Assembly (NCBI GenBank): GCA_030390025.1
Contig: JASTWF010000033.1
Location: forward strand, 4,156,001-4,220,000
Length of the DNA: 64,000 nt
Origin: Squalus acanthias
Taxonomy: Eukaryota
Direction: 5' to 3'
Shown: positions 3,146-59,400 of the stretch, piece after piece
How the letters are laid out: each line of letters starts with the position of its first letter
Position numbering within the stretch: position 1 is the first letter of the stretch
Program-made: the position numbers and the translations under genes
Notes under the pieces: model-generated
What the model saw: the letters and a program-made list of their open reading frames with translations, nothing else
Database searches by the model: none
Told to the model about the DNA's origin: nothing

Positions 3146-4305
3146 TGTTGGCTTCGCAAAACCCCCAGAAACTCGAACAGAGCCCTAAAGGGAGTGATTT
3201 TTGGACTTTTCATACAAACTTGGGATGATGGGACGTCAGTGAAGTGATTTGATGCAAAAACCTAAAGATCACAAGATTTAAACCCTGAGGAAAATGACTT
3301 TTCGAATCTTATTGTTGGGAGAGACATTTTTTTCACAGACACAAGCTGCAAGGGGCGTGGCCGGTCAGTGAACAGATCAAGCTGTCTGGGAATTGTTTGA
3401 GTCAATGCAAAACTCACAAACACATTCAAATATGGATCCCCAGGGGCAAACAAAATGCTGGAAATCTAAAAACGAATCAATGACAATATAACACCGATCA
3501 CACAGTTTCATAGCCATTATCCCATCAAAAAAAACAATCAACCAGGTATCCAGAGAACAGATTTAAAAGCCAGCCAACAGAAGGACAATAGGGTGAAGAT
3601 TTGGCGCGTAGATAAGGCCGTGTTTTTAAATCGTAAAACGATTAACACTAAGCAAAAACCATCGGAGCTGGCCAGCCCGCCAAAAACTAGACAATTGGAC
3701 GAAGCAAGGGTAATTTACATTCAAAAAGGAATTCGTTTTAGTAAGTGGTTTTTGGGCGCGAAAAAGAAACAGTATAATTTGAAAGCCTGAGCCATAATCT
3801 CTCTCTCTTTCGGACTGACTGACGACGTGAACACAGCTCTCTCCCTGCTCCAGCAAAACTTACCACAAGCCACGAAGAAGAAGGCCAGAAGACCAGCACG
3901 CAAGAAGAAACCATAAGTGCCTTCCGGAGTTCTTCTAAACAAAAGACTCTAATATCCTGTCAAGGATTCGTTAGTGAGCATTATCCCTGATCTCCTGAAA
4001 CCAACAACCTAGCCAAATAGTGGGATCTTTGGGAGGGATAAGGTTTTGTTTGATATATTGTCATTTCCCTCGCTTGTACCGTGTGTTCCCCGAATCTGTG
4101 TTTAAGTAATAAATGTGTTTCAAGTTTGTTACCTTTATTTTCTTTTAGTAAAGTAAATTTTCTTTCATCAGAACCTGTTTACTGCAATTTTGTTCACAAC
4201 CCCTAAATAAGCCCAAAGTCTAGGAACCGGAGGGGTGTTGGAGTGATTCGAACCGCTCACTGTGTCAGAAAGCGAAGGGTGACCCCACTTAAGATACTCC
4301 TTACA
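3146..4305 (+). mobile_element. 5' LTR of endogenous retrovirus (1160 bp, TG...CA)
   Basis: Starts tgttggcttcgcaaaa, ends ccttaca; collinear with 11492-12746; TATA-like agtataa at about 3771, aataaa at 4108. Confidence 0.9.
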
Positions 4306-4307
4306 TA

Positions 4308-7300
4308 ATGGCATGGGAGCAAGAAGGGAAGGGGATCCTGGGGGCCGACTTTATCACAGGCCACAGGATTTGAGTGGATTTAAGGAACCACTGTCTATGG
4401 GGAGCATGTACCCAAAAGGGTAGTGAGATAGCATTCATCCCGGAGGCACAAGGCAAGGGGACCTTGTGCACAGTAATACCAAAGGAGGGTAACGACCTCG
4501 AACTCATGGTCAGTAACACTCCAATGGACTACGAGGCATTTGTGCAGGGAAACCTCGCAGCATTTGCCATTCACAAGCACGACTGTGGGAGGGTAACCGG
4601 GACCGAGGTTAGTGTGAGTGGGGACCCCATGAACCGCCCACAAAAGCAGTATAACTTCCCCAGGGAAGCTGAGACAGACTTGGAAACGGCTTTGACTTCT
4701 TTAGTCAAGCAGGGGGTATTGAGACCTATAGTTACCGACGTGAACCCCCCACTGTGGCCGGTTAGAAAACAAGACAACTCATGGTGGGCCACAGTAGACT
4801 ATCGAGTACACAACCGAAACATCCCCGCCTGTGCCCCCACGGTTGCAGCCGTAGCCGACCTCATTGGAAGTATCCCAGCATCTGCGAACACCTTTACAGT
4901 GCTGGATATTTCCAACGGGTTCTGGTCCATCCCTCTAAGGAGAGAGGATCAGAACAAGTTCGCCTTTACATTTAAAGGCCGACAGTACACATGGCACTGT
5001 CTGCCCCAGGGTTTCCACAACAGCCCAAGCATTTTTCACCAATGTATGGCGAATTGCTTGAAGGGCTTCAGCAGGCCCCATCAGCTGGTCCAGTATGTGG
5101 ACGACCTACTCCTCTTTACCGATGAGGGAGAGGGACATCGACCCCTTCTGGCAGAACTGCTGGATCTGCTCAGGCAAGAGGGCTTTAAAGTAAACCCCAA
5201 GAAGGCACAGATTGGCCAGCGGGAAGTCAAATTCCTGGGCCTGGCTGTGCGAGCAGGGGAGAGGGCCATTGACAAAGCTAGAAGGGAAGCAGTTCAGGAG
5301 TTACCAGCCCCCAACACAGTTACAGGAGTAAGGTCTTTTCTAGGGCTAACTGGGTACTGCAGAGATTTCATGGAGGATTACGCAGCCACAGCAGCCCCTC
5401 TGCTCCGACTCCTACACAAGGGAGTGGAGTTGGTTTGAGATGAGAGTTGCGAGGCTGCCTTTATGAAACTCAAGAGAGATCTGCAGACCGCTCCGGCTCT
5501 AGGGGCCATTGATGGAGGGGAAGAGTTTTTCCTGGAGGTAGCAGCCAGTGGGGACAGTCTGAGTGCAGTGCTGCTCCAAGAGAGGCATGGGAAGCTGTGA
5601 CCTGTGGTTTACTCCTGCGGAATACTCACTGATGTGGAGAGGAGCTACTCCAACTGTGAGAGGCACCTCCTATCACTAACTGGGCTGTGAAAAGATCATT
5701 GATCTTCACAGGCACCTCTCCCATCACACTCCTCACTCACCACACGCCCACCCAGATGCTCTTGGATGGAGGATTAAAGATGGGACAGTGAGCAATGCCC
5801 GCAATGCTCGCTGGACCCTGCTTCTCTCACAAATGGATCTGAGGGTAAAAGGTCTCTGCGAGCCAAAGCTCGCAGCCAACATGATTTAGTCAGGGACAGC
5901 CCACTGGTGTTCCGTTGAAGGGGTATGGGAAGTCAACATAGGTTTGCGAGCTGGGATACACCCCGCAGGCCGCGAAATCTATGTGGACGGTTCAAGCACT
6001 GTATCAGCTGGAAAACGACTCTCTGGGTGTGGGATTTATGACCCAGAGGTAGGCATTGCTCTGGCAATCAAGCTCCCCAGCACCATGAGTGCCCAGCAGG
6101 CTGAACTGTCTGCGGTGGTGTATTTAGTCACACAGCCCGAGGAATTCCCTACCCCATACACGATTTGCTCGGACAGCATGTTCACATGCAATTCGTGTAC
6201 AGAGTACCTGGCCATCTGGTCCCGTCATGGATACACCTCCGCTGATGGGAGACCCCTGGCCATCAAGTCTCTGTTGGAGAAAATCATGCGGGCAATAGGG
6301 GAGGAAGGTAGGGTCTACATCCTAAAGGTGAAGGCCCATTCCAAGGTAGAGCCCCGCGCAGAGGGTAATCACCAAGCCGACATGCTGGCCAAAGAGGTAG
6401 CCAGTACAGGCACGTTATGGGATCCATATGGATCAAACCGGGTAGCAGCAATCAGAGGCAGAGGAGCGACCCAAGGGAGTGAAGGGGTAGCATTGACCCC
6501 GGACCTAAAGTCGGTCCAGGCACAGGATCCCATCCTAAAAAAACTGTCCTGGAAAAGCTATCAGAGGGGAGAAGGTAGAGGGCCCATACGGCGCAGCAGC
6601 CATCACCCACAAAAAAGGCATGCTGTTCAGGGGGGAACAATGGGTAGTGCCGCAGCAGCACCGAAGGGAATTCCTCCAACTGGCCCATGCGGGACCAGGA
6701 GCGGGGTATCCCGGGCCTGAGACCACCTGGCAGCGGGTGGAACAGGCAGGATGGTGGCCAGGACTGAGGGAGGATGTCCGCGAGTTATGTGCAGGCTGTC
6801 TGGTGTGTGCTGCTAACAACCCTGACCCCCAGAACAGGAAGGTATCTATGGGACACATCAGGAGGGTAGAGGGGCCATGGCAGTCGATCCAGGTCGACTA
6901 CATCGGGCCCGTACCCACCGCTCATGGAGGCTGCAAATACTGTCTAGTCCTGGTGGATGTGTTCTCAAAGTGGGTGGAAGCTTTTCCATGTCGAACAGCT
7001 ACCGCTTTGCATAGAGCCAGGATCCTGGTCAGGGAAGTGTTCTCACGATGGGGGCTCCCACAGTATGTGGAGTCAGACCAGAGGAGTCAATTTACTGGGC
7101 AGGTCATGCAAGAGACCCTCAGGGTACTCGGCATAGAAGGGAAATGGCACGTCGCCCACAACCCACAGTCATCAGGGATTGTGGAGCAATTAATCCGTAC
7201 CATCAAAGAAAGGCTGCGAAAGGAGATGGGAGACTCACCCAAAAAGTGGGTAGAAGCCTTACCGTTGGTCCTATTGGGGATCCGGGCCAGCGAGTCAAAA

Positions 7301-8668
7301 AGCACGGGGTATTCCCCACACCAGCTCATGACTGGCAGGATTATGCGGACCCCCACCCATGTGCTAGCCCCGGTGCTCACGGAAGGGCAGCTCAGGGAGG
7401 TGAACCGGGAAAGATTCGTCAGGAATCTGTTGGACCACCTTAAACAGGTCATAGAAACATAGATAGAAACATAGAATCTAGGAGCAGGAGTAGGCCATTC
7501 GGCCCGTCGAGCCTGCTCCACCATTCAATACGATCATTGCTGATCATCCAAATCCAGTACCCTGTCCCTGCTTTAATCCCCACAGTACACATATCCCACC
7601 CTACCCCCGTAACCCCACGTACTTAATTCCCCCTAACATATCCCATCCTATCCCCATAACCCCACATATTTAATACCCCCTAACACTAAGGGTCAATTTA
7701 TCATAGCCAAATCAACCTAACCCACACATTTTTGGACTGTGGGAGGAAACCGGAGCACCCGGAGGAAACCCACGCAGACACGGGGAGAATGTGCAAACTC
7801 CACACAGACAGTCACCCACTGGCAGGCTGCGAGTAACATGGGAAAACAGCATCGGGGTAAACGATTGCGGCTGGAACCCCGCAAGCACCACGAGTGGGAG
7901 GTTGGAAATCAGGTCACGGTGAGAAATTTTGCCCGGATAGGGAGTTTCGAATCATTGTACATGGGGCCCTACAACATTGTAGACAAGGCAAGCCCCATGG
8001 TCGATGCCATAAAGATGCCTCGCCGTACAAAGTGATTTCACCTCAACCAATGCAAACTGGTTAAACCTAAAAGGCAACAGCCGGCAAAGGTGGACTGCCC
8101 CCAAGTTAGAAATCCTCAGCCTGCCGCAGCTGTGGCAGACGCACAAGCTGCAGCGGGAGGGACAGTGTGTTGTCTCACAGGAGATGTCACTCCACCGATT
8201 ATGTGGGACTCAAGCACACCCCCCGTGGCCAGAGCCCTAAGAAGGTCTCCCCGCACACGACAGCAAAGGCTACTGTGGCCACAGGTGTATCTGTTCAGAG
8301 GGTCCCACACAAAGAGGGTTGCAACCCGAAGAAGAGCGCCCAAGAGCAGGGAGCGTTCTAAAGTTGGGGATTCCCAGCCTACAGCCTCCAACAGTGAGGG
8401 TTTCACAGTAGAGGTAGTACTGGGAGAAGAGAGAGAGAAGGGTCCCCCGCCCGCAGCCTCAGGCTGGGAGGAGCCCACAGATATGAACGAGGGCGCTGCA
8501 GCCACACAAAAGGGGGTAGTGTGCTGCAGCACAGGACGCAGCTGGGATGTTAAGATACCCACAGCGGTTTTGAGGAAGGCCTTCTGGGTCCGGCGGTACA
8601 GGGCGCACTACACCCAGGTGTACAAGCCATCCAGAGGCCACATAAGGCAGAGACTAAATAGGATTTAA
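4308..8668 (+). pseudogene. pol: Retroviral pol: protease C-terminal half, RT, tether, RNase H, integrase and a C-terminal extension; disrupted by stops, frameshifts and a SINE
   Basis: ILGADF (protease); RPQKQY, LDISNGFW, LPQGFHNSP, YVDD (RT); IYVDGS, SAQQAEL, SDS, KVKAH, GNHQAD (RNase H); CLVC, VDYIG, SDQ, GIVE, YMGPY (integrase). Confidence 0.92.
7451..7816 (-). mobile_element. 5'-truncated V-SINE (HE1-like) with CR1-derived tail, inserted in integrase
   Basis: V-domain-like ggactgtgggaggaaaccggagcacccggaggaaacccacgcagacacggggagaatgtgcaaactccacacagac plus CR1-type tail (atagaaac)n; removing it restores ...LKQV|HWQAA... Confidence 0.8.
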
Positions 8669-8869
8669 CCTGGCCGTCCGGAGACGGGCGGCAAATGTAC
8701 AGAATTTTCGGTTTTAAGTAATTGACTTTTGGTGGTTATGGTTATCATTAGTTTAGTTGTTTGTAGAGATTTTTTTTAAGTTTAAGGGCTTGATTAATCA
8801 TCCAGCCAAAGAACCTTTCTGGGACATGGATATATGTTTTGTGTGTGCCCCTACAGAAAGGACTTCGGA

Positions 8870-11209
8870 ATGACAAGGTTTCTGCTCCTGCTCGCCCTGG
8901 TAGGGGTGAGCATCGGTGACCGAGGTGACGTGGAGGACTCCCACATTTTTGGGTGTTCAGGAGTGAGAGCACCAGTCGTCACCGCAGGGGGTGGCGAGCG
9001 GGGAGTGGAGGAGCTCACCATCTATTTCCACGAGGGAAGGTGGCCAGGGTGGCTGGGGTCCAACTCTACTAAATACTCAATCCAGCCCGGGTTCACGTAC
9101 GGGGAGGCCTCCCTTCCACGCCCCAGAATACAGGTCGTTGCCACAAGGGTCAGTGTCACCGAGGGGAAGCTTGTGTGCCTTACCTGTGAGGGACGAATTC
9201 CCCTGAATAGGTGGTGGTGGCTCAAGGAAGCTGAGCAGGGACGCAGGGGTCCATACAGCCGACTGGGAAAGATTAGGGAACGACACCCATCGGACAATCA
9301 CTGGGACCCAAGGAGGAGTTAGTGTTTGTTGGGATAAGTGGTGGGAGTCGGAACAGGGAGTCTATGTTTGTATGTGGGGATCAGAGGAAACCTGCCCCAC
9401 AGGGGTATCCATCATCTTCTCCAGCCAATGGCAAGATGCTGGGGAGGGGATAGGGTGGGATTCTAGCCTGCATGGGTGCGTGGTCCCACACATTCCGGTC
9501 CCAGTTAATGCCACTGAACTCGTGGCACACACCCGAAAGCCCTTACCCACGACCCAGGTACCGAAAACCCTGGAAGAAAAGTGCCCTACCACCACCAAGG
9601 GACCAGGGAATGGGTTAGTCCTAGTACCAACCGAAAAGGTACTATACCAGGGGGTACACTATGCATTAGCTTCAGTAATATTAAACCTTACCGAGTTATA
9701 CTTACCTGAGTGGTTTCCTAAGGAGACGGAGCAGCTGTAACAGGCCCTGCTAAAGGAAATGTTTAGAAAATGTTACGAATTTGATTTTGCTAATATAGAA
9801 AAAGTTGAGCTATACAGAATACACCCTGAAAACCCTATTGGCACGGGTAGACAAAGAAGGGGAGCCTGGAATGATGTCTTCACTGCCTATAGTACAGGGT
9901 CCTCTGTAATAAATAGCCTGGATGACATGGAATTACAGACACAGATAAATGGTTTAAAAACCCAGTTAAGAAAGATCCTGAAGGATGGGAACACAGTAGT
10001 AGGCTCAGAGCTACATGAGGACCAAGTTATGACGGTTCATTTAAAGGAAATTATTGCGGAATTGGAAAGGCATGCCAAAACAGTAAATGCACTCATACGG
10101 GAGGATAGGATTGCATCGGATCAGGCTGCACAGAATGAGGTGTGTGTGCTGTACGGGGCATGGTTGCTGGGCGAGGGCCATAGCAACCTGGAGGATTTAA
10201 AGCAAGGTTTAGTCCCCTCCTGGATCAGCAACAAGCACCTCGCAGCCCTCCACCCGTTTAGTAATTCGCTGAGCCCATGCCAATTTCGTCTAGCCTCTGA
10301 AGCCTACCCTGTCCCAATAGATTGTGGGCGTTCAAATCACACTATCATGGGGATAGTAGTGAGGATGACGGTCATGAGTGGGACAGCCCGACCCGTACCG
10401 GTATACAGGGTGGAGAACATTGGAGTCAATCAACGGGGTGCACACATCCGTTTTAACGCGGTCCCACCTTATGTCATAAAGTGGGAGCACGCCATGACGG
10501 GTGCCGGAGCCGGGGTTCACACATAATACTGTGTCCCCAGCACTTGGAAGCCTATTGTAAACCACAGTGCGGGTTTAAAGCTGCTGGCGCACGACCTATC
10601 AACTGTACCATGGAGGTGATGGCACAAGGCCATGTTTTCTCACAGGTAGCATATATAGGGGGTGGGACATATTGTGTCACCACAGGTGCGTCCCACTACC
10701 AGCATGGACACTTTTGGTGTCCGGTAAGTGAGAGCAGTTTCTGCTTTAAACCCGAGGCAGAAGTTCAAGTGGCCCAGGAACGGATTGTCCCCATTCCTGA
10801 AACCTCCACTGTTCATCTCACTGTAACAGAAAACATTTCCAACCTGCAAAAGTATGTGACTTACTTTGGATATAAAATTCCCCCTCTACCCGAACATCTT
10901 ACCATCCTACTTAAAGCTGTAGAGATTTCACAAAAACATTTCTACACCCTGGAACAGAAAACAGTTGAAATAGGGGCAGAGATTTTGGATATAGTAGTTC
11001 CACCCTGGTGGGATATTTTCGAGAATATAGAGGTGCCTTCCTGGATCAGGATGGCTTCCCATCTTTTGGTGGTCTGCCAACTCGGGATAGTTATCTACCT
11101 GCTGTGTACAAAGTGCAGGGGAAGGGACGGGGAGCTCCGCTCCAGACACGAAGGGACTTGGGAAGTGCTTCAAAATAAAGGCTATGGTCAGGGATGGAAC
11201 GAAACTTGA
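8870..11209 (+). pseudogene. env: env: class I fusion glycoprotein with F-like architecture; one stop and two frameshifts
   Basis: Splice acceptor ending at 8856; signal peptide MTRFLLLLALVGVSIG; furin site RQRR at 9849-9860; heptad region; Cys-rich domain; C-terminal transmembrane ASHLLVVCQLGIVIYLLC. Confidence 0.85.
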
Positions 11210-11480
11210 ATTTTGTCTTTTAATTAAAAAAATTGTATGTGTGGTGTGTCATTTTTATGATGTGTATGATGTGTTTTTCCAAGCTGTGCAGGGGTGTCGG
11301 ACACTCTCCGTGCTTGGATGTGAAATAAAGATTGATTCTTACCTGTATGTACCTGAAACACCAGTTTTAAAAGGGGAATGTATGTTTGGGTTTTTAGTTT
11401 AGGTAATACAGGGGAAGGTTGGTTTTCGGGGATCGGAAATTTTGCTCACCTGTTAATGATACTAATTCAGTTTTCGTATC

Positions 11481-11491
11481 AAAGTGGGGGA
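11481..11491 (+). promoter_or_regulatory. Polypurine tract before the 3' LTR
   Basis: aaagtggggga immediately precedes the TG of the 3' LTR. Confidence 0.8.
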
Positions 11492-12746
11492 TGCAGGCTT
11501 CGCAAAATCCCCCAGAAACTCCAACAGAGCCCTAAAGGGAGTGATTTTTGTACCTTTCATACAAACTTGGGATGATGGGACCTAAGTGAAGTGATTTGAT
11601 GTAAAAACCTCAGTTTTGGAAAGATCAGGGAAGAAAAACCCTGAGAAAAATGATTTTTGAATCTTACTGTTGGGAGAGACACCTTTCACAGACACAAGAC
11701 AAGTTGCGGTGGGGCGTGGCCAGGCAGTGGACAGCTTTGGGTATTGGGGCCCAATCAAGCTGTCTGGGAATTGTTTACACTGCAAATCCTACCAAGGAGG
11801 AAGAGACAAACCAAAAACTCACACACACATCGAAATATGAATAATCCAAGACCCACTTTTGAATTTCCCAGGGCCAAACATGATACCAGAAGTCTGAAAT
11901 CAATAAAACATTTAGTGCTTCATCAAAACCCAATCAACCAGGTATCCACAGAACAGATTTAAAAACCCGCCAAAAGACCTAGGACAATAGGGTTGAGATT
12001 TGGCGCGTAGATTAGGCTGTGTTTAAATCGGAAAACGATCAGGTCATGTTTAACACTGAGCTAAAGTCATCGGAACTGGCAAGCCCGCCAAAACTAGACA
12101 ATGGACTTAGCAAGGTTCATTTGAACCTAAAGGAATCCGTTTTAGTAAGGGGTTTTTGGGCGCGAAAAAGAAAGAGTATAAATGAAAGCCTGTCCCATAA
12201 CTTCTCTCTCTTTCGGACTGGCTGACTACGCTGACACAGCTCTCTCCCTGCTCCAGCAAAAACCACTACAAGCCACGAGGAAGAAGGCCAGCAAGCAGAC
12301 CAGCACACAAGAAGAAACCAGAGCAACTGCCTCAGTGACCACCGGACACTTCGCAGCAACAAGGGCCTTACGAAAACTTTTAAACAAAAGAATCTAAAAT
12401 CCTGTCAAGGATTCGTTGGTGAGCATTATCCCTGAACTCCTGAAACCAAAAACCTAGCTAGATAGTGGGATATTTGGGAGGGATAAGGTTTTGTTTGGTA
12501 TATTGTCATTCTCCCTCCCTTGTACCGTGTGCTCCCCAATCTGTGTTTAAGTAATAAGTGTGTTTCAAGTTTGTTACCTTTTTCTTTTAATAAAGTAAAA
12601 TTCTTTCATCAGAACCTGTCGTCTACTGCAATTTTGTTCACAACCCCTAAATAAGTCCAACGTCTAGGAATCAGAAGGGTGTGGGAGCGATTCGAACCGC
12701 TCACTTAGTCAGAAAGCGAAGGCTGACCCCATTACCAGCCCCTACA
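11492..12746 (+). mobile_element. 3' LTR of endogenous retrovirus (1255 bp, TG...CA)
   Basis: Starts tgcaggcttcgcaaaa, ends ccctaca; agtataaa at about 12175, aataaa at 12589. Confidence 0.9.
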
Positions 12747-12779
12747 AAACTAACAGAGCTCCTCAAACTAATTCAGCAC

Positions 12780-44919: not shown

Positions 44920-47900
44920 TAGAACCACTACAACCCCAGCACAGGACTGCAAGGGCACAGACCTGTACAATCCCACAGCACTGCACCGTAAGGGCACAAA
45001 ACTTTAAATCCAAGAACATTATTATAAGGACACAGGCCAGTACAAACCCTCAGCATTTTCCTGCAAGGAAACAAACATGTACAACACAAACACAGTCCGA
45101 TTAATAAACAGAGCTGTACCATCCCATCACTGTCCTGTATAAACACCAGCAGAGTCCTATAACTACACAGAACTGTACCTCCCCAGCACTGTCCTTTATA
45201 AACCCCCAGCACTATCCTGTAACTAAATAGAAATGTACCACCCCAGCACAGTCCTGTATAAACCCCCAGCACTATCCGGTACCGAAACAGAGCCGTACCA
45301 CCCCAGAACAGTCCTGTATAAACCGCCAGCACTATCCTGTAACTACACAGAGCTCAACCACCCCAGTATTGTCCTGCATAAACCCCAGCAGAGTCCTATC
45401 AATACACAGAACTGTACCACCCCAGCACAGTCCTGTATAAACCCACAGCAATATCCTGCAACTACACAGAGCCGTACCATCCCACCACTGTCCTGTATAA
45501 ACCGCCAGCACAATCCTGTAACGACACAGAGCTCAACCACCCCAGTATTGTCCTGCATAAACCCCAGCAGAGTCCTATAAATACACAGCGCAGTACTACA
45601 CCAGCACTGTCCTGTATAAACACCCCAGCACTGTCCTGTAAATACACAGAGCTGTACCACCCCAGCAATGTCCTGTTTAAACCCCAGCACTGTACATTTC
45701 GACACAGACATGTAACACACCAGTACTGTCCTGTAAAATACCCCAGCACTGTCCTGTAACTACACAGAGCTGTAAAACCACAGCACTGTCCTTTATAACC
45801 CCCTGCACTGTCCTGTAACTACACATTGCTGTACCACCCCAGCACTGGCCTGTATAACCACCCGCTCACCCACCCCAGCACTGTTCTGTAACTAGACAGA
45901 GCTGTACCACCCCAGCACTGTCCCGTATAAGACCCCAGCACATCCTTTAACTACACAGAGCTGAGCAACCACAGCACTGTCCTGCATAATCCCCCAGCAC
46001 TGTATTGTTAGGACACAGATCTGTACAAAGCCAACACTGTACTGTAAAGCTACAGATCTGTGCATCCCCTGCCCTGCACTGTAAGGACAAATACATGTAC
46101 AACCCCATTATTGTACTATAAGACACAGCAGTTTAAAATAACCCAGCACTGCACTGTAAGGTTACAGAGTTTTACAACCGCCTACACTGCACTGTAAGGA
46201 CTGAGTCATATACAGCCCCGGCACTCTAATGTACGGACAAAGACATGTACAGCCCCGACACCACACTGCATGGACGCAGAACGGTACCCCCCACCCCCAT
46301 CATTGCTCTTTAAGGAGACAGAATTGCACAACCCCAGCACTGCACTGTTAGGACACAGACCTGCACAAGCCAAGCTATGCACTGTTAGGATATAGACCTG
46401 TAGAACCACAGCAATGCACTGTTAGGACACAGAACTGTACAACTCCTGCACTGCACTGTTAGGACACAGACCTGTACAATTCAAGCAATGCACTGTTAGG
46501 ACACAGACCTGTACAACCCAAGCACTGCACTGTTAGGACACAGACCTGTAGAACCCAAACAATGCATTGTTAGGACACAGACCTGTAGAACCTCAGCACT
46601 GCACTGTTAGGACACAGAACTGTACCACCCTAGCACAGTCCTGTATAAACCCCAGCAGAGTCCTATCAATACACAGAACTGTACCACCCCAGCACAGTCC
46701 TGTATAAACCCAAAGCAATATCCTGGAACTACACAGAGCCGTACCATCCCACCACTGTCCTGTATAAACCGCCAGCACAATCCTGTAACTACACAGAGCT
46801 CAACCACCCCAGTATTGTCTTGCATAAACCCCAGCAGAGTCCTATAAATACACAGCGCAGTACTGCAACAGCACTGTCCTGTATAAACAGCCCAGCACTG
46901 TCCTGTAAATACACAGAGCTGTACCACCCCAGCAATGTTCTGTTTAAAGCCCCAGCACTGTACATTTCGGACACAGACATGTAACGCACTAGCACTGTCG
47001 TGCAAAAAATGTCAGCACAGTCCTGTAACTACACAGAGCTGTACCATCACAGCACTCTCCTGTACAACCCCCTGCACTGTCCTGTAACTACACAGAACTG
47101 TACAACCCAGCACTGGCCTGAATAACCATCCCCCCAACCCCAGCACTGTTCTGTAACTAGACAGAGCTGTACCACCCCATTACTGTCCCGAATAAAAACT
47201 AGCACTGCCCTATAACTACACAGAGCTGTACAACCACAGCACTGTCCTGCATAATCCCCCAGCACTGTATTGTTAGGACACAGATCTGTACAAAGCCAAC
47301 ACTGTACTGTAAGGCTACAGATCTGTGCATCCCCTGCCCTGCACTGTAAGGACAAATACATGTACAACCCCATTATTGTACTATAAGGACACAGCAGTTT
47401 AAAATAACCCAGCACTGCACTGTAAGGACAGAGTCATGTACAGCCCCGGCACTCTAATGTATGGACACAGACATGTACAGCCCCGGCACTACACTGCATG
47501 GACGCAGACATGTACAACCCCGGCACTCTAATGTACGGACACAGACATGTACAGCCCCGGCACTACACTGCATGGACGCAGAACGGTACCCCCAACCCCC
47601 ATCATTGTTCTTTAAGGAGATAGAACTGCACAACCCCAGCACTGTACTGTAGAATCACAAAACTGTACAATCCCACAGCACTGTACTGTGGGAACACAGA
47701 ACTGTACAATCCTCCAGCACTGCACTGTAACAACACTCACCTGCACAACCCAAACAATGCACTGTTAGGACACAGACCCGTACAACCTCAGCACTGCACT
47801 GTTAGGACACAGACCTGTACAACCACAGCACTGCACTGCTAGGGCTCAGACCTGTAGAACCACAGCACTGCACTGTTAGGACACAGACCTGTAGAACCGA

Positions 47901-48862
47901 AGCACTGCACTGTTAGGACACAGACCTGTACAACCCCAGCACTGCACTGTTAGGACACAGACCTGTGCAACTCCAGCACTGCACTGTTAGGACACAGACC
48001 TGTACAACCACAGCACTGCACTGTTAGGACACAGACCTGTACAACCTCAGCACTGCACTGTTAGGACACAGACCTGTACAACCGAGCACTGCACTGTTAG
48101 GACACAGACCTGTAAAACCGGGCACTGCACTGTTAGGACACAGACCTGTACAACCCCAGCACTGCACTGTTAGGACACAGACCTGGAGAACCGAGCACTG
48201 CACTGTTAGGACACAGACCTGTACAACCCCAGCACTGCACTGTTAGGACACAGACCTGCCAACCCCAGCACTGCACTGTTAGGACACAGACCTGTACAAC
48301 CCCAGCACTGCACTGTTAGGACACAGACCTGTACAACACCAGCACTGCACTGTTAGGACACAGACCTGCACAACCCCAGCACTGCACTGTTAGGACACAG
48401 ACCTGTACAACCCAGCACTGCACTGTTAGGACACAGACCTGTACAACCCCAGCACTGCACTGTTAGGACACAGACCTGTACAACCCCAGCACTGCACTGT
48501 TAGGACACAGACCTGTACAACCCCAGCACTGCACTGTTAGGACACAGACCTGCACAACACCAGCACTGCACTGTTAGGACAAAGACTTGCACAACCCCAT
48601 CACTGCACTGTTAGGGCACAGATCTGTACAACCCCAGCACTGCACTGTTAGGACACAGACCTGTACAACCCCAGCACTGCACTGTTAGGACACAGACCTG
48701 GAGAACCGAGTACTGCATTGTTAGGACACAGACCTGCACAACCGCAACACTGCACTGTTAGGACACAGCCCTGGAGAACCGAGCACTGCACTGTTAGGAC
48801 ACAGACCTGTACAACCCCAGTACTGCACTGTTAGGACACAGACCTGCACAACCCCAGCACTG
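44920..48862. repeat. Compound minisatellite: 37-bp unit (agcactgcactgttaggacacagacctgtacaacccc) plus related longer variants
   Basis: Homogeneous 37-bp array at about 47750-48862; diverged variants upstream. Confidence 0.92.
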
Positions 48863-48865
48863 CTC

Positions 48866-49912
48866 TGTTTGACCGGTCACGGGGGTTTGACTGGTCCCGG
48901 GGGTTTGACCAGTCCTGGGGGTTTTGCCAGTCCCGGGGGTTTGACCGGTCCCGGGGGTTTGACCAGTCCTGGGGGTTTGATCAGTCCTGGGGTTTTGACT
49001 GGTCCCGGGGGTTTGACCGGTCCCGGGGGTTTGACCTGTCCCGGGGGTCTGACCGGTCCCTGGGGTTTCCACCGGTCCCGGGGATTTGACCAGTCCCGGG
49101 GGTTTAACCGGACCCGGGGCTTTGACCAGTCCCGGGGGTTTGTCCGGTCCCGGGGGTGTGACCAGTCCCTGGGGTTTGACCTGTCCCGGGGGTCTGACCG
49201 GTCCCGGGTGTGTGACCAGTCCCGGGTGTGTGACCAGTCCCGGGTGTGTGACCAGTCCCGGGTGTGTGACCAGTCCCGGGTGTTTGACCTGTCCCGGGGG
49301 TTTGACCGGTCCCGGGGGTTTGACCTGTCCCGGGGGTGTTACCGGTCCCGGGGGTTAGACCAGTCCCGGAAGTTTGACCAGTCCCGGGGGTTTGACCAGT
49401 CCCAGGGGGTTTGACCGGCCCCGGAGGTTTGACCGGCCCCGGAGGTTTGACCAGTCCCGGGGGATTGACCAGTCCCGGGTGTTTGACCAGTCCCGGGGGA
49501 TTGACCGGTTCCGGGGGTTTGACCGGTCCCGGGGGTTTGACCAGTCCCGGGAGTTTGACCAGTCCCAGGGGGTTTGACCGGCCCCGGAGGTTTGACCGGT
49601 CCCGGGGGTTTGACCAGTCCCGGGGGATTGACCAGTCCCGGGTGTTTGACCAGTTCCGGGGGTTTGACCGGTCCCGGGAGTTTGACCAGTCCCGGGGATT
49701 TCATTTGTCCCAGGGGTTTGACCAGTCCCGGGGGGTTTGACCGGTCCCGGGGGTGTGACCAGTCCCGGGGGTTTGACCGGACCCGGGGGTTTGACCGGTC
49801 CCGGGGGTGTGACCAGTCCCGGGGGTTTGACCGGACCCGGGGGTTTGACCAGTCCCAGGGGTTTGACCTGTACCGGGGGTTTGACCAGTCCCGGGGTTGT
49901 GACCTTTCCCGG
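48866..49912. repeat. 18-bp GC-rich minisatellite (gacc[a/g]gtcccgggggttt), about 58 copies
   Basis: Direct inspection; produces the PGTGQT / TSPGGL pseudo-ORFs. Confidence 0.95.
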
Positions 49913-50498
49913 GGCCTTGCTGAGGCCACACCTGGAGTATTGTGTGCAGTTTTGGTCTCCTAACTTGAGGAAGGACATTCTTGCTATTGAGGGAGTGCAA
50001 CGAAGGTTCACTAGATTGATTCCTGGGATGGCCAAACCGACATATCAAGAAAGACTGGATCAACTGAACTTGTATCCTCTGGAGTTCAGAAGAATGAGGG
50101 GGGATCTTATAGAGACATTTAAAATCCTGACCGGTTTAGACAAATTAGATGCGGGCAGAATGTTTACAATGTTAGGGAAAAATAAAACCAGGGGTCACAG
50201 TCTAAGGATAAAGGGGAAGCCATTTAAGACTGAGATGAGGAGGAACTTCTTCACCCAGAGAGTGGTGAATCTGTGGAATTCTCTACCACAGAAGGTTGTT
50301 GAGGCCTGTTCGCTAAATATATTCAAAAGGGAGTTAGATATGATACTCACAACTAGGGGGATCAAGGGGTATGGCGAGAAAGCAGGAATGGGGTACTGAG
50401 GTAGCATGTTCAGCCATGACCGCATTGAATGGCGGTGCAGGCTCGAAGGACCGAATGGTCTACTCCTGCACCTATTTTCGATGTTTCTATGTTTCTAT
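49913..50498 (+). mobile_element. CR1 LINE 3' end with an uninterrupted ORF2 C-terminus
   Basis: LRPHLEYCVQFWSP...GIKGYGEKAG open to stop at 50399; (atgtttct)n tail. Confidence 0.92.
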
Positions 50499-53400
50499 GG
50501 GTCTGTGAATGGAGCTGCATGGGTCTGTGAATTGAGCTGTCTGAGTCTGTGAATGGAGCTGTCTGTGTCTGTGAATGGAGCTGTCTGTGTCTGTGAATGG
50601 AGCTGTCTGGGTCTGTGAATGGAGATGTCTGAGTCTGTGAATGGAGCTGCCAGAGTCTGTAAATGGAGCTGTCTGGGTCTCTGAATTGAGCTGTCTGTGT
50701 ATATGAATTGAGCTGTCAGTGTCTGTAAATGGAGCTGTCTGGTTCTGTTAATGGAGCTGTCTGGATCTGTGAATGGAACAGTCTGTGTCTGTGAATGAGC
50801 TGTCTGGGTCTGTGAATGGAGCTGTCTGGTTCTGTGAATGGAGCGGTCTGTATCTGTGAATGGAGTTTTCTGGGCCTGTGAATGGAGATGTCTGGTTCTG
50901 TGAATGGAGATGTCTGGTTCTGTGAATGGAGATGTCTGGTTCTGTGAATGGAGATGTCTGGTTCTGTGAATGGAGCTGTCTGGTTCTGTGAATGGTGTTG
51001 TCTGGTCTGTGAATGGAGCTGGCTGGGTCTGTGAATGGAACTGTCTGAGGCTGTGAATGCAGATGTCTGGAATTGTGAATGGAGTTATCTGTGTCTGTGA
51101 ATGGAGCTGTCTGAGTCTGTGAATGGAGCTGTCTGGTTCTGTGAATGGAGCTGTCTGGGTCTGTGAATGGAGCTGTCTGGGTCTGTGAATGGAGCTGTCT
51201 GGGTCTGTGAATGGAGCTGTCTGAGTCTGTAAATAGAGCTGTCTGGGTCTGTGAATGGAGCTGCGAGAGTCTGTAAATGGAGCTGTCTGAGTCTGTAAAT
51301 GGAGCTGTCTGGATCTGTGAATGGAACTGTCTGTGTCTGTGAATGAGCTGTCTGGATCTGTGAAATGTGCTTTCTGTATCTGAAAATGGAGTTGTCTGGG
51401 TCTGTGAATAGAGCTGTCTGACTTTGTTAATGGAGCTGTCTGGGTCTGTGACCTGAGGTTTCAGAGTTTTTGAAGTCAGCCGTCTGGATCTTTGAATGGA
51501 GCTGTCTGTGTGTCTGAAATGAGCTTTTTGAGTTTCTGAATGGAGATGTCTGGGTCTGTCAAATGAATTGTCTGAATCTGTTCGTGAAATGAGCTGTCTG
51601 TTTTTTTCAAATTAGCTTTCCATGTCTGTGAATGTTGCTGTCTGGGTCTGTGAATGGATCTGTCGAGTCTGTGAAAGGAGCTGTCTGAGTCTGTGAATGG
51701 AGCTGTCTGAGTCTCTGAATGGAGCTATCGGGGTCTGTGAATGGAGCTGTCTGCGTCTGTGAATGGAGCTGTCTGAGTATGTGAATGGAGCTGTCTGGGT
51801 CGCTGAATGGAACTGTCTGGATCTGTGAATGGAGCTGACTGAGTCTGTGAATGGAGCTGTCTGAGTCTGTGAATGGAGCTATCTGGGTCTGTGAATGGAG
51901 CTGTCTGGGTCTGTGAATGGAGCTGTCTGAGTCTCTGAATCGAGCTGTCTGGGTCTGTGAATGGAGCTGTCTGGGTTTGTGAATGGAGGGGTCTGGGTCT
52001 GTGAATGGAGCTGTCTCATTCTCTGAATGGAGCTGTCTGTGTCTGTGAAAAGTGCTATCGAGGTCTCTGAAATGAACTTTCTGAGTCTGTAAATGGAGCT
52101 GTCTGGGTCTGTAAATGGAGCTGTTTTGGACTGTGAATGGAGCTGTCTGAGTCTGTGAATGGAGCTGTCTGTGTCTGTAAATGGAGCTGTTTGGGACTGT
52201 AAATGGAGCTGTTTGGGTCTGTGAATGGAGCTGTCTGAGTCTGTGAATGAGCTGTCTGGATCTGGGAAATGTGCTTTCTGGGTCTGAAAATGCAGTTGTC
52301 TGGGTCTGTGAATAGAGCTGTCTGACGTTGTTAATGGAGTAGTCTGGGTCTGTGACCTGAGCTTGCAGAGTCTTTGAAGTCAGCCGTCTGTATCTTTGAA
52401 TGGAGCAGTCTGAGTGTCTGAAATGAGCTTTTTGAATTTCTGAATGGAGATGTCTGGGTCTGTCAAATGAATTGTCTGAATCTGTACGTGAAATGAGCTT
52501 TCTGTTTTTTTCAAATTAGCTTTCCATGTCTGTGAATGTTGCTGTCTGAGTCTGTGAATGGAGCTATCTGGGTCTGTGAATGGAGCTGTCTGGGTCTCTG
52601 AATGAAACTGTCTAGGTCTGTGAATGGAGCTGTCTGGGTCTGTGAATGAGCTGTCTGGATCTGTGAAATGTGCTTTCTGTATCTGAAAATGGAGTTGTCT
52701 GGGTCTGTGAATAGAGCTGTCTGACTTTGTTAATGGAGCTGTCTGGGTCTGTGACCTGAGGTTTCAGAGTTTTTGAAGTCAGCCGTCTGGATCTTTGAAT
52801 GGAGCTGTCTGTGTGTCTGAAATGAGCTTTTTGAGTTTCTGAATGGAGATGTCTGGGTCTGTCAAATGAATTGTCTGAATCTGTTCGTGAAATGAGCTGT
52901 CTGTTTTTTTCAAATTAGCTTTCCATGTCTGTGAATGTTGCTGTCTGGGTCTGTGAATGGATCTGTCGAGTCTGTGAAAGGAGCTGTCTGAGTCTGTGAA
53001 TGGAGCTGTCTGAGTCTCTGAATGGAGCTGTCTGGGTCTGTGAATGGAGCTGTCTGCGTCTGTGAATGGAGCTGTCTGAGTCTGTGAATGGAGCTGTCTG
53101 GGTCGCTGAATGGAACTGTCTGGTCTGTGAATGGAGCTGACTGAGTCTGTGAATGGAGCTGTCTGAGTCTGTGAATGGAGCTATCTGGGTCTGTGAATGG
53201 AGCTGTCTGGGTCTGTGAATGGAGCTGTCTGAGTCTCTGAATCGAGCTGTCTGGGTCTGTGAATGGAGCTGTCTGGGTCTGTGAATGGAGCTGTCTGGGT
53301 CTGTGAATGGAGCTGTCTGGGTCTCTGAATGGAGCTGTCTGTGTCTGTGAATGGAGCTATCGAGGTCTCTGAAATGAACTTTCTGAGTCTGTAAATGGAG

Positions 53401-56400
53401 CTGTCTGGGTCTGTAAATGGAGCTGTTTGGGTCTGTGAATGGAGCTGTCTGAGTCTGTGAATGGAGCTGTCTGTGTCTGTAATGGAGCTGTTTGGGTCTG
53501 TAAATGGAGCTGTTTGGGTCTGTGAATGGAGCTGTCTGAGTCTGTGAATGAGCTGTCTGGATCTGGGAAATGTGCTTTCTGGGTCTGAAAATGCAGTTGT
53601 CTGGGTCTGTGAATAGAGCTGTCTGACGTTGTTAATGGAGTAGTCTGGGTCTGTGACCTGAGCTTGCAGAGTCTTTGAAGTCAGCCGTCTGTATCTTTGA
53701 ATGGAGCAGTCTGAGTGTCTGAAATGAGCTTTTTGAATTTCTGAATGGAGATGTCTGGGTCTGTCAAATGAATTGTCTGAATCTGTACGTGAAATGAGCT
53801 TTCTGTTTTTTTCAAATTAGCTTTCCATGTCTGTGAATGTTGCTGTCTGAGTCTGTGAATGGAGCTATCTGGGTCTGTGAATGGAGCTGTCTGGGTCTCT
53901 GAATGAAACTGTCTAGGTCTGTGAATGGAGCTGTCTGGGTCTGTGAATGGAGCCGTCTGAGTCTGTGAATGCAGATGTCTGGGTCTGTGAATGGAGGTAT
54001 CTGTGTCTGTGAATGGAGCTGTCTGGGTCTGTGAATGGAGCTGTCTGGGTCTGTGAATGGAGCTGTCTGGGTCTGTGAATAGAGCTGTCTGACGTTGTTA
54101 ATGGAGCAGTCTGGGTCTGTGACCTGAGCTTGCAGAGTCTTTGAAGTCAGCCGTCTGTATCTTTGAATGGAGCAGTCTGAGTCTCTGAATGGATGTGTCT
54201 GTGTCTGTGAATGGAGCTGTCTGAGTCTGTGAATGGAGCTGTCTGAGTCTGTGAATGGAGCTATCTGGGTCTGTGATTGGAGCTGTCTGGGTCTCTGAAT
54301 GAAACTGTCTGGGTCTGTGAATGGAGCTGTCTGAGTATGTGAATGGAGCAGTCTGGGTCTCTGAATGGACCTGTCTGGGTCTGTGAATGGAGCTTACCGA
54401 GTCTGTGAATGGAGGTGTCTGGGTCTGTGAATGGAGGGGTCTGGGTCTGTGAATGGTTCTGTCTGGGTCTGTGAATGGAGCTGTCTGGATCTGTGAAATA
54501 TACTTTCGGAGTCTCTGAATGGAACTGTCTGTGTCTGTGAATGGTGCTATCTAGGTCTCTGAAATGAACTATCTGAGTCTGTAAATGGAGCTGTCTGGGT
54601 CTGTAAATGTAGCTGTCTGGGTCTGTAAATGGAGCTGTTTGGGACTGTGAATGGAGCTGTCTGAGTCTGTGAATGGAGCTGTCTGTGTCTGCAAATGGAG
54701 CTGTCTGGGTCTGTGAATGGAGCTGCCAGAGTCTGTAATGAAGCTGACTGGGTCTGTGAATGGAGCTGTCTGAGTCTTTGAATGGAGCTGTCTGGGTCTG
54801 TAAATGGAGCTGTTGGGTCTGTGAATGGAGCTGTCTCGGTCTGTGAATGGAGCTGTCTGGGTCTGTGAAAGAAGCTGTCTGGGTCTGTGAATGGAGCTCT
54901 CTGTATCTGTGAATGGAGCTGTCTGAGTCTGTGAATGGGATGTCTAGGTCTGTGAATGGAGCTGTCTGGGTCTGTGAATGGAGCTGTCTGGGTCTGTGAA
55001 TGGATCTGTCTGGTTCTGTGAATGGAGCTGTCTGGGTCTGTGAATGGAGCAGCGAGAGTATGTGAATGGAGATGCGAGAGTCTGTAAATGGAGCTGTCTG
55101 GGTCTCTGAATGGAGCTGTCTGTGTCTGTGAATTGAGCTTTCAGTGTCTGTAAATTGAGCTGTTTGGGTCTTTGAATACAGCTGCCTGTTTCTGTGAATG
55201 GAGCTGTCTGGATCTGTGAATGGAACTGTCTGTGTCTGTGAATGAGCTGTCTGGGTCTGTGATTGGAACTGTCTGAGTCTGTGACTGGAGCTGTCTGGAT
55301 CCGTGAATGGAACTGTCTGTGATGTGAATGGAGCTGTCTGGGTCTGTGAATGGAGCTGTCTGAGTCTGTAAATATAGCTGTCTGTATCTGTGAATGGAAC
55401 TGTCTGTGTCTTTGAATGAGCTGTCTGGATCTGTGAAATGTGTTGTCTGGGTCTAAAAATGGAGTTGTCTCGGTCTGTGAATAGAGCTGTCTGGGTCTGT
55501 AATGGAGCTGTTATGGGTCTGTGAATGGAGCTTTCTGAGTCTGTGAATGGAGCGTCTGAGTCTGTGAATGGAGCTGTCTGAGTCTCTGAATGAGCTTTAT
55601 GAGTTTGTAATGGAGCTGTTGGGTCTGTAATGAGCTGTCTGGGTCTGTGAATGAGCTGTCTAGTTCTGTGAATGGAGCTTTCTGAGTCTGTGATGCTGTC
55701 TGGGTCTGTGAATGGATCTGTCTGGGTCTGTGAATGGAGCTGTCTGGGTCTGTGAATGGAGCTGTCTGAGTCTGTGAATGGAGCTGTCTGGTCTGTGAAT
55801 GGAGCTGTCTGGGTCTGTGAATGGAACTGTCTGGGTCTGTGAATGGAGCTGTCTGGTCTGTGAATGGAGCTGTCTGGGTCTGTGAATGGAGCTGTCTGGG
55901 TCTGTGAATGGAGCTGTCTGGGTCTGTGAATGGAGCTGTCTGGGTCTGTGAATGGAGCTGTCTGGGTCTGTGAATGGAGCTGTCTGGGTCTGTGAATGGA
56001 GCTGTTTTGGTCTGTGAATGGTGCTGTCTGAGTCTGTGAATGGAGCTGTCTGGGTCTGTGAATGGAGCTGTCTGGGTCTGTGAATGGAGCTGTCTGAGTC
56101 TGTGGATGGAGCTGTCTGGGTCTGTGAATGGAGCTGTCTGGGTCTGTGAATGGAGCTGTCTGGGTCTGTGAATGGAGATGTCTGAATCTGCGAATGGAGC
56201 TGCCAGAGTCTGTAAATGGAGCTTACTCGGTCTGTTAATGGAGCTGTCTAGGCCTGTGAAAGAAGCTGTCTGGGTCTGTGAATGGAGCTGTCTATTTCTG
56301 TGAATGGAGCTGCCTGAATCTGTAAATGGAGCTGTCTGTGTCTGTGAATGGTGTTGTCTGGGTCTGTGAATGGAGCTGGCTGGGTCTGTGAATGGAACTG

Positions 56401-59400
56401 TCTGAGGCTGTGAATGCAGATGTCTGGAATTGTGAATGGAGTTATCTGTGTCTGTGAATGGAGCTGTCTGAGTCTGTGAATGGAGCTGTCTGGTTCTGTG
56501 AATGGAGCTGTCTGGGTCTGTGAATGGAGCTGTCTGGGTCTGTGAATGGAGCTGTCTGGGTCTGTGAATGGAGCTGTCTGAGTCTGTAAATAGAGCTGTC
56601 TGGGTCTGTGAATGGAGCTGCGAGAGTCTGTAAATGGAGCTGTCTGAGTCTGTAAATGGAGCTGTCTCGATCTGTGAATGGAACTGTCTGTGTCTGTGAA
56701 TGAGCTGTCTGGATCTGTGAAATGTGCTTTCTGTATCTGAAAATGGAGTTGTCTGGGTCTGTGAATAGAGCTGTCTGACTTTGTTAATGGAGCTGTCTGG
56801 GTCTGTGACCTGAGGTTTCAGAGTTTTTGAAGTCAGCCGTCTGGATCTTTGAATGGAGCTGTCTGTGTGTCTGAAATGAGCTTTTTGAGTTTCTGAATGG
56901 AGATGTCTGGGTCTGTCAAATGAATTGTCTGAATCTGTTCGTGAAATGAGCTGTCTGTTTTTTTCAAATTAGCTTTCCATGTCTGTGAATGTTGCTGTCT
57001 GGGTCTGTGAATGGATCTGTCTGAGTCTGTGAAAGGAGCTGTCTGAGTCTGTAAATGGAGCTGTCTGAGTCTCTGAATGGAGCTATCGGGGTCTGTGAAT
57101 GGAGCTGTCTGCGTCTGTGAATGGAGCTGTCTGAGTATGTGAATGGAGCTGTCTGAGTCTGTGAATGGAGCTATCTGGGTCTGTGAATGGAGCTGTCTGG
57201 GTCTGTGAATGGAGCTGTCTGAGTCTCTGAATCGAGCTGTCTGGGTCTGTGAATGGAGCTGTCTGGGTTTGTGAATGGAGGGGTCTGGGTCTGTGAATGG
57301 AGCTGTCTCATTCTCTGAATGGAGCTGTCTGTGTCTGTGAATGGTGCTATCGAGGTCTCTGAAATGAACTTTCTGAGTCTGTAAATGGAGCTGTCTGGGT
57401 CTGTAAATGGAGCTGTTTTGGACTGTGAATGGAGCTGTCTGAGTCTGTGAATGGAGCTGTCTGTGTCTGTAAATGGAGCTGTTTGGGACTGTAAATGGAG
57501 CTGTTTGGGTCTGTGAATGGAGCTGTCTGAGTCTGTGAATGAGCTGTCTGGATCTGGGAAATGTGCTTTCTGGGTCTGAAAATGCAGTTGTCTGGGTCTG
57601 TGAATAGAGCTGTCTGACGTTGTTGATGGAGCAGTCTGGGTCTGTGACCTGAGCTTGCAGAGTCTTTGAAGTCAGCCGTCTGTATCTTTGAATGGAGCAG
57701 TCTGAGTGTCTGAAATGAGCTTTTTGAAAATCTGAATGGAGATGTCTGGGTCTGTCAAATGAATTGTCTGAATCTGTACGTGAAATGAGCTGTCTGTTTG
57801 TTTCAAATTAGCTTTCCATGTCTGTGAATGTTGCTGTCTGAGTCTGTGAATGGAGCTATCTGGGTCTGTGAATGGAGCTGTCTGGGTCTCTGAATGAAAC
57901 TGTCTGGGTTTGTGAATGGAGCTGTCTGGGTCTGTGAATGGAGCTGTCTGAGTCTGTGAATGCAGATGTCTGGGTCTGTGAATGGAGGTATCTGTGTCTG
58001 TGAATGGAGCTGTCTGAGTCTGTGAATGGAGATGTTTGGGTCTTTGAATGGAGCTGTCTGTGTCTGCGAATGGAGCTGTCTGTATCTGTGAATGGAGCTG
58101 CCTGTGTCTGTGAATGAACTGTCTGGGTCTGTGATTGGAGCTGTCTGAGTCTTTGAATGGAGCTATCTGTGTCTGTGAATGAGCTGTCTGGGACTGTAAA
58201 TGGTGCCATCTGGGTCTGTGAATGGAGCTGTCTGAGTCTGTAAATGGAGCTGTCTGGATCTGTGAATGGAACTGGCTGTGTCTGTGAATGAGCTGTCTGG
58301 ATCTGTGAAATGTGCTTTCTGGGTCAGAAAATGCAGTTGTCTGGGTCTGTGAATAGAGCTGTCTGACGTTGTTAATGGAGCTGTCTGGGTCTGTGAATGG
58401 AGCTGTCTGTGTCTGTAAATGGAGCTGTTTGGGTCTGTGAATGGAGCTGTCTGAGTCTGTGAATGGATCTGTCTGGGTCTGTGAATGGAGCTGTCTGGTT
58501 CTGTGAATAGAGCTGTCTGGGTCTGTGAATGGATCTGTCTGGTCTGTGAATGGAGCTATCTTTGTCTGTGAATGGACATGTCTGGTTCTGTGAATGGAGC
58601 TGTCTGGGTCTGTGAGAGGAGCTGTTTGGGTCTGTGAATGGAGCTGTCTGGGTCTGTGAATGGAGCTGTCTGGGTCTGTGAATGGAGCTGTCTGGGTCTG
58701 TGAATAGAGCTGTCTGACGTTGTTAATTGAGCAGTCTGGGTCTGTGATCTGAGCTTGCAGAGTCTTTGAAGTCAGCCATCTGTATCTTTGAATGGAGCAG
58801 TCTGAGTCTGTGAATGGATGTGTCTGTGTCTGTGAATGGAGCTGTCTGAGTCTGTGAATGGAGCTGTCTGAGTCTGTGAATGGAGCTATCTGGGTCTGTG
58901 AATGGAGCTGTCTGGGTCTCTGAATGAAACTGTCTGGGTCTGTGAATGGAGCTGTCTGAGTCTGTGAATGGAGCAGTCTGGGTCTCTGAATGGACCTGTC
59001 TGGGTCTGTGAATGGAGCTTACTGAGTCTGTGAATGGAGGTGTCTGGGTCTGTGAATGGAGGGGTCTGGGTCTGTGAATGGTTCTGTCTGGGTCTGTGAA
59101 TGGAGCTGTCTGGATCTGTGAAATAAACTTTCGTAGTCTCTGAATGGAACTGCCTGTGTCTGTGAATGGTGCTATCTAGGTCTCTGAAATGAACTATCTG
59201 AGTCTGTAAATGGAGCTGTCTGGGACTGTAAATGGAGCTGTCTGGGTCTGTGAATGGAGCTGCCAGAGTCTGTAAATGGAGCTGACTGGGTCTGTGAATG
59301 GAGCTGTCTGAGTCTGTAAATATAGCTGTCTGTATCTGCGAATGGAACTGTCTGTGATGTGAATGGAGCTGTCTGGGTCTGTGAATGGAGCTGTCTGAGT

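Follow-up and report, generated by a model that had tools for sequence, protein, structure and literature searches.

F-type fusogens either depend on a separate protein for attachment or have a module added to them. In the sections of PMC11468914 consulted, binding modules are said to be accommodated by the F scaffold either internally or N-terminally, the coronavirus spike being the N-terminal case, and the module added to foamy virus Env is a binding domain. In gamma-type Env, an N-terminal Ig-fold receptor-binding domain (RBD) is joined by a proline-rich region, and RBDs have been transferred between lineages via recombination inside env; Env-Dbi carries a captured SIRP-like IgV domain that retains the SIRP residues contacting CD47 (bioRxiv 2024.03.17.585361, in the excerpts consulted, where neither fish nor shark is mentioned). 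A whole captured nectin3 replaces env in crocodilian ERV4, as reported in the part consulted of PMC4299795. A survey of lokiretroviruses lists no positives for the two shark orders covered by the sections consulted (PMC7947760). SnRV-like endogenous retroviruses (ERVs) occur in fish, amphibians, and reptiles, including elephant shark lineage I, and the portions of PMC4422223 and PMC4977317 consulted describe no Env domains for them.

The env gene examined here had been read in a first-pass annotation as a captured host Ig domain on a mucin-like stalk, fused to an F-like fusogen, and no such retroviral Env architecture was known to its author. The latter statement was too strong, since the Ig-fold RBD and proline-rich region of gamma-type Env and the IgV domain of Env-Dbi are already described (excerpts consulted of bioRxiv 2024.03.17.585361). 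In the mostly open-access literature searched, an Ig head on an F-type retroviral Env was nowhere described, and word searches showed "immunoglobulin" to be absent from the main text of PMC7947760, PMC9040795, PMC5512871, PMC12440569, PMC13709493, PMC8227577, and bioRxiv 2023.10.26.564294.

The window, by which we mean the whole 64,000-nucleotide stretch of Squalus acanthias DNA analyzed, contains an LTR retroelement at approximately 3147-12748 in which reverse transcriptase (RT), RNase H, integrase, and env are present, while gag and protease are absent upstream of RT. All features described below lie on the forward strand. The 5' LTR (3147-4306, ends approximate) was recognized as the repeat partner of 11490-12750, and the 3' LTR (11493-12748, ends approximate) as the repeat of the 5' LTR, preceded by a purine run. 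RT (4374-5438) was assigned by a Pfam RVT_1 match (5e-32), by best PDB matches to foamy virus and then MLV RT, and by motifs and a tree. A second RNase H follows downstream of a tether region (5890-6720; Pfam RNase_H, 1e-19), and tether and RNase H were also seen in the genomic copy L025. The integrase core (6539-7462; Pfam rve and Integrase_H2C2) is interrupted by an insert at approximately 7450-7816, which is missing from L025 and L026, repeats elsewhere, and is probably a SINE. A 210-residue open stretch 3' of integrase (8036-8668) gave no Pfam match; its counterpart in L025 and L026 appears to extend the integrase frame.

The two LTRs of the element align at 77% identity (1264 columns, 33 gaps), each resembles at 90-95% the LTR of another copy (a different copy for each), and no target-site duplication was evident by eye around the element. 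Based on these three observations, the window element likely arose through recombination between two proviruses or through a join made in assembly. When the animal's own genome was searched at the DNA level, 1729 first-look candidates were returned, 40 of which were scored, at 95-100% identity, and the window element is one copy, now dead, of an endogenous retrovirus present in high copy number. Two internal layouts were seen to share env: gag-like and protease-like ORFs without RT or integrase (L021-L024, four of six loci), the gag-like ORF having a weak zinc knuckle, and pol plus env (L025, L026, and the window). These layouts may complement each other. No tRNA gene was found in the window. 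Elsewhere in the window, positions 45000-64000 display a steady, strong strand skew (GC skew of about +0.4 and AT skew of about -0.3 from 50 kb, reversed at 45-49 kb), likely reflecting a long simple-repeat or satellite array.

The window RT carries the motifs LPQGFHNSP and QYVDD, which are of the SnRV type. A 28-row RT tree placed it in a starred 17-row clade with Pols of frog, coelacanth, and turtle; P0081, which carries the two SnRV motifs, is the sister row of this clade, with 93/88 support. The tree used 27 of 29 Pol matches (P0089 and P0095, too short, were left out) and is without a named lokiretrovirus or foamy virus reference. An integrase close to CGIN1/NYNRIN is a lokiretrovirus trait; four of the 29 Pol relatives bear the name "NYNRIN-like." A scan of viral contigs for RT references found no relative. 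By its RT motifs and this tree, the element is likely an SnRV-related endogenous retrovirus. The SnRV-like ERVs described in the consulted portions of PMC4422223 and PMC4977317 have RT motifs of this type; membership would rest on motifs and on a tree without named references. Lokiretrovirus-type features, namely, an F-like Env and dual RNase H, are present. All 11 of the lokiretrovirus RT passages compared, from the part of the published material consulted, read PFG..NSP..FN where the window has LPQGFHNSP and QYVDD, and membership in the lokiretroviruses was rejected on this motif difference only, the tree holding no lokiretrovirus row. Although its Env core is Loki-like, the element is not to be classed as a lokiretrovirus.

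Env starts with a likely signal peptide at 8870-8920, recognized by eye from its hydrophobic N-terminus. The peptides quoted in the first-pass annotation were found where it had placed them, with PRIQVVATRVSVTEGKLVCLTC and NRWWWLK in the frame open at 8798-9322 and SVCWDKWWESEQGVYVCMW and PLPTTQVPKT...PTTTK in the frame open at 9207-9740. The frameshift between them, which had been put at about 9280-9300, was relocated by comparison with the 20 closest genomic copies to approximately 9220-9230, directly after the W-rich strand. Counting the window, 6 of these 20 copies share the frameshift, 13 are open, and 1 has a stop there. In the same 13, signal peptide, a head of about 200 residues with the Ig-like segment (through GVYVC), short hinge, and fusion core follow one another in a single open frame; the concern that intact copies might read GVYVC in another frame is thereby removed. 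Contigs from four of four public sequencing runs, representing three organisms, also departed from the window at the frameshift site, a comparison that addresses presence only; no RNA dataset was listed among those carrying the sequence. In runs X1-X3, contigs diverged from the window after the signal peptide (8842-8920) and continued like the env tail near 11100, likely derived from an env-deleted form. The window env has two further breaks, a stop (9738-9740) and, near 10500, another change of frame, and its own Env is dead. The domain analyses were based on natural open copies.

A skate, several sharks, and frogs are the sources of the named relatives of this env, from which the host was judged likely to be a cartilaginous fish. 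Several database gene models (P0002, P0003, P0004, and P0034) fuse env-family pieces to host genes (zinc finger, Niban, cadherin, F-box) and are either annotation artefacts or exonised provirus. The P0037 cluster has 16 members within one frog genome, with 677 residues in 12 of the 15 listed, and is a young expansion of a related env.

Domains of the Ig superfamily are recognized by a B-strand Cys, a C-strand Trp about 10-15 residues later, an F-strand D/E-x-G-x-Y-x-C motif, and a Cys spacing of about 55-75 residues. The candidate Ig-like domain of the shark Env spans residues 84-184 (9119-9422, frameshifted in the window at approximately 9220-9230), and 58 of its 101 residues are identical in the skate relative P0001. 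All six sequences tested have the B-strand Cys, Trp at +9/+10, the D/E-x-G-x-Y-x-C motif (Asp at its first position in four of six), and a Cys-to-Cys distance of 61, and these landmarks and their spacing are conserved in the skate and sawshark relatives. From the final residue of the E strand to the F-strand Cys the distance is 13, giving an E-to-F length equal to that of the antibody heavy chain used for comparison. Two extra Cys residues, 103 and 153, are conserved in the same six sequences; in the antibody register they would presumably be cross-strand neighbors on strands B and E. The landmark pattern, which was written post hoc, arose in 5 of 20,000 shuffles of the module and had no match in the six-frame translation of the window (122,502 residues).

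Profile searches pointed to the same fold below threshold. Pfam Ig_3, the sole or best family match for the head, aligned over profile positions 2-74 of 78 in all six copies that include the head (E of 0.005-0.015) and, with the isolated domain, in four of four open copies (E of 0.0008-0.001). The latter gave the best scores, 20.0-20.4 bits; over all searches the range was 16-20 bits, always below the cut-off of 30, so the Pfam check proposed for the Ig call did not reach its cut-off. Ig_3 also matched the relatives P0009 and P0068, and no Ig_3 match was found in P0001 or P0007. In the ESM Atlas, the ten best matches carrying a family all belonged to the Ig clan (0.90-0.91), where the top three matches had no family and one third of shuffled proteins likewise obtain ten same-clan matches. 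A PDB search gave a weak match of the head to basigin Ig (E of 1.3), and a head profile searched against the PDB found no Ig chain. In the predicted models, strands fall at B, C, D, E, and F. With seven sequences as input, AlphaFold modeled the head at a mean pLDDT of 34.6, and Foldseek with this low-confidence model returned no match at E≤0.001, cohesins ranking at the top with antibody and IgLON chains intermixed below. The proposal of an Ig domain in the Env N-terminus is accordingly supported in part, by motifs, spacing, and in-frame copies, and falls short in Pfam score and in the poor AlphaFold model; overall, from sequence landmarks, the head very probably adopts an Ig fold. Its description as a captured host domain fared less well, in that traceable capture is unsupported: no host Ig protein was among the 49 matches at E≤0.001 in a phmmer search with the whole Env against 1.84 billion representatives, and neither the PDB searches nor the ESM Atlas named a host donor.

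The Ig-like domain is flanked by two further conserved segments. The one preceding it (residues 26-83; 8945-9118) is identical to skate P0001 at 36 of 58 positions, and the models contain no confident structure for it; the one following (residues 185-215; 9423-9515) is identical at 17 of 31 and includes one conserved Cys. A short Pro/Thr-rich hinge, assigned from its composition, then leads to the core (residues 216-237; 9516-9581). The hinge is the least conserved part of Env in the skate comparison, with 6 of 22 residues identical versus 58 of 101 in the Ig domain and 64 of 89 at the core start. A mucin-like stalk is a long segment densely rich in Ser, Thr, and Pro. The stalk claimed in the first-pass annotation was rejected on grounds of length and composition, as only a hinge of about 22 residues is present, with 30% Ser/Thr and 17% Pro at residues 221-243.

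The core is conserved from residue 238 across sharks and frogs. Its F2-like start (CP...GP..GL) runs to an RQRR cleavage motif at 9849-9860 (9582-9860, containing the window's stop) and is conserved in seven of seven aligned sequences. The F1-like part (9861-11209, containing the window's second frame change) comprises fusion peptide, heptad repeats, Cys-rich domains, and membrane anchor, and was assigned by Foldseek and a foamy virus Env profile match. The full-length model had a mean pLDDT of 60.4, with 60-94 in most core blocks and a monomer pTM of 0.42. In Foldseek, the full-length model matched F proteins from paramyxoviruses and pneumoviruses with a best E of 7.9e-10; there were 196 matches at E≤0.001, all F proteins among the matches listed, and TM-scores of the F matches were low (0.28/0.48). 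A 42-row profile matched foamy virus Env (E of 4.5e-5), and structural matches extended to glycoprotein models of insect viruses and walleye retroviruses. No orthoretroviral SU/TM Pfam family was found on a full-length copy. The F2-like region expected after the Thr/Pro-rich stretch is borne out by pLDDT values of 81-91 at residues 241-300 and by the 7.9e-10 match. The core is thus predicted, from these models, to fold like paramyxovirus F, and within the proposed fusion of an Ig domain to an F-like fusogen, the F-like core is well supported and the Ig part is likely. As a separate observation, the predicted Envs of the walleye epsilonretroviruses WDSV and WEHV1 rank among the top structural matches, which suggests, at the level of models, that they may also carry an F-type core.

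Comparison with relatives indicates that the head is an add-on. In the published lokiretrovirus Envs, as far as the source was consulted, the homologous GP..G motif directly follows the signal peptide in 22 of 23 cases, judged by eye, the 23rd being a fragment; P0038 likewise has no head, its signal peptide leading directly to the core. Other relatives carry heads of their own. A bamboo-shark Env relative bears the UniProt name "Ig-like domain-containing," the P0029 head has a weak V-set match (E of 0.045), and two frog Envs, whose heads are possibly Ig-like in sequence, share a Cys-Trp-Cys segment, one of them with weak antibody matches. The head of P0011 and P0023 is of another, Cys-rich kind, and further Cys-rich heads occur in the animal's own genome. 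A search of the animal's own genome with P0011 gave 66 matches, and the 16 loci read (L027-L042) contained no fewer than three further kinds of head, all ending in a hinge rich in Thr and Pro, with no match to the Ig head in any of the 16. L028 and L034 resemble mosaics from which most of the head has gone. The L033 head had no usable ESM Atlas match and only a weak MapZ_C2 match in Pfam.

A sign of exchange is seen at the junction with the core. L029, L033, and L040 share 90-91% DNA identity with L037 from 51 bases before the core-motif end onward, have no head match to it, and are 69-71% identical further upstream. This is the sequence pattern of a crossover at the head/core junction, seen in sister families and not for the Ig head itself. 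In a 16-row core tree, the skate and sawshark rows joined the Ig-head family in a starred clade, and two unrelated heads sat on one starred clade with short branches. When cut modules were compared, the Ig-like heads of distant lineages showed a marginal likeness (z of 2.5-4.6), with which a single ancient origin and repeated capture are both compatible.

By analogy with foamy virus Env and gamma-type Env, on which the assignment of binding and cleavage depends, we regard it as reasonably probable that the Ig-fold head is an exchangeable receptor-binding head on a paramyxovirus-F-like core that fuses after cleavage at RQRR. The Ig domain would have been acquired long ago from a host gene or another virus, and recombination at the hinge/core junction would have swapped heads between virus lineages. 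Furin cleavage would leave the head on the F2-like subunit; by binding a cell-surface receptor, the head would provide a target for the fusogen without a separate attachment protein, and the F-type core would fuse membranes once the RQRR motif is cut. The Ig-like domain could instead be a spacer, a shield, or a clamp on the prefusion trimer, with the flanks or the F core binding the receptor. That the core can exist without a head is evident from P0038, from the 22 of 23 headless lokiretrovirus Envs in the part of the survey consulted, and from L028 and L034, and the flanks are as conserved as the Ig domain (55-62% versus 57%). However, the module added to foamy virus Env binds and the F scaffold carries binding modules (PMC11468914, sections consulted), and the turnover of heads over near-identical cores fits receptor switching; we consider the spacer or clamp role unlikely.

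A role as an immune decoy or mimic, engaging a host immune receptor or ligand and dispensable for entry, draws on the Ig-superfamily fold itself, on the CD47-contacting SIRP residues kept by Env-Dbi (bioRxiv 2024.03.17.585361, excerpts consulted), and on the captured nectin3 of crocodilian ERV4 (PMC4299795, part consulted). A mimic would, however, be expected to stay near its host model, whereas no host Ig protein was matched at E≤0.001, and sister families have non-Ig modules in the head position, making this role distinctly improbable. Finally, the sub-threshold Pfam scores, low pLDDT, and lack of a significant fold match would also suit a Cys/Trp-rich viral beta domain whose Ig-like motifs arose by chance or convergence. 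Against this stand the fixed-spacing landmarks in six of six sequences, recovered in only 5 of 20,000 shuffles, and independent Ig calls at the equivalent position in distant relatives, and a non-Ig domain appears very improbable indeed. For the receptor-binding head, a broader scenario may be entertained tentatively, in which a retrovirus clade of sharks, rays, and frogs would use one F-like chassis to which heads are plugged in and swapped by recombination at a fixed hinge, several of these heads being Ig domains taken independently from hosts, as a natural receptor-switching system parallel to, and independent of, the gamma-Env RBD.

In the literature searched, cell targeting by an F-type retroviral Env is known for foamy viruses only. 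With the present family, F-type Env is also found in a lineage of cartilaginous fish and frogs that is neither lokiretroviral nor foamy viral; this matters for the question of whether the F type is the older state of retroviral Env. Since a single genome shows one core gaining, losing, and exchanging heads, natural variants make it possible to test where receptor-binding modules come from.

Among known systems, foamy virus Env ("class Ib") resembles the window Env in combining an F-like scaffold with its own binding module, a probable one in the window, yet the RBD of foamy virus sits ahead of the furin site with a fold of its own, whereas the window module is N-terminal, as in the coronavirus spike, and Ig-like (PMC11468914, sections consulted). 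Where foamy viruses have an RBD between the F2-like part and the furin site, the window family has no insertion, its core reaching the cleavage motif after about 90 residues. The head is also separate from the Ig-fold domain II of F, which sits inside the core. Lokiretrovirus Env shares the F-like character, an RxxR site, and a homologous core start, along with the tether and RNase H in Pol, but lacks in 22 of 23 cases the N-terminal head that the window family has (PMC7947760, sections consulted). Crocodilian ERV4 is comparable in that its env position, again in an ERV outside classes I and II, holds Ig domains; it took up the mRNA of a host gene in full, with about 76% identity to the host protein, in contrast to one diverged domain fused to a fusogen in the window (PMC4299795, part consulted). 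Gamma-type Env and Env-Dbi come closest in layout, having an N-terminal Ig-fold module, a flexible linker, and a fusion machine behind, with modules exchanged; their core is orthoretroviral SU/TM where that of the window family is F type, and the Env-Dbi domain is near a host gene, whereas the window Ig head is without a traceable donor (bioRxiv 2024.03.17.585361, excerpts consulted). Overall, the design itself is known, and its combination of a likely Ig head with an F-type retroviral Env, as read from sequence, did not turn up in the literature searched.
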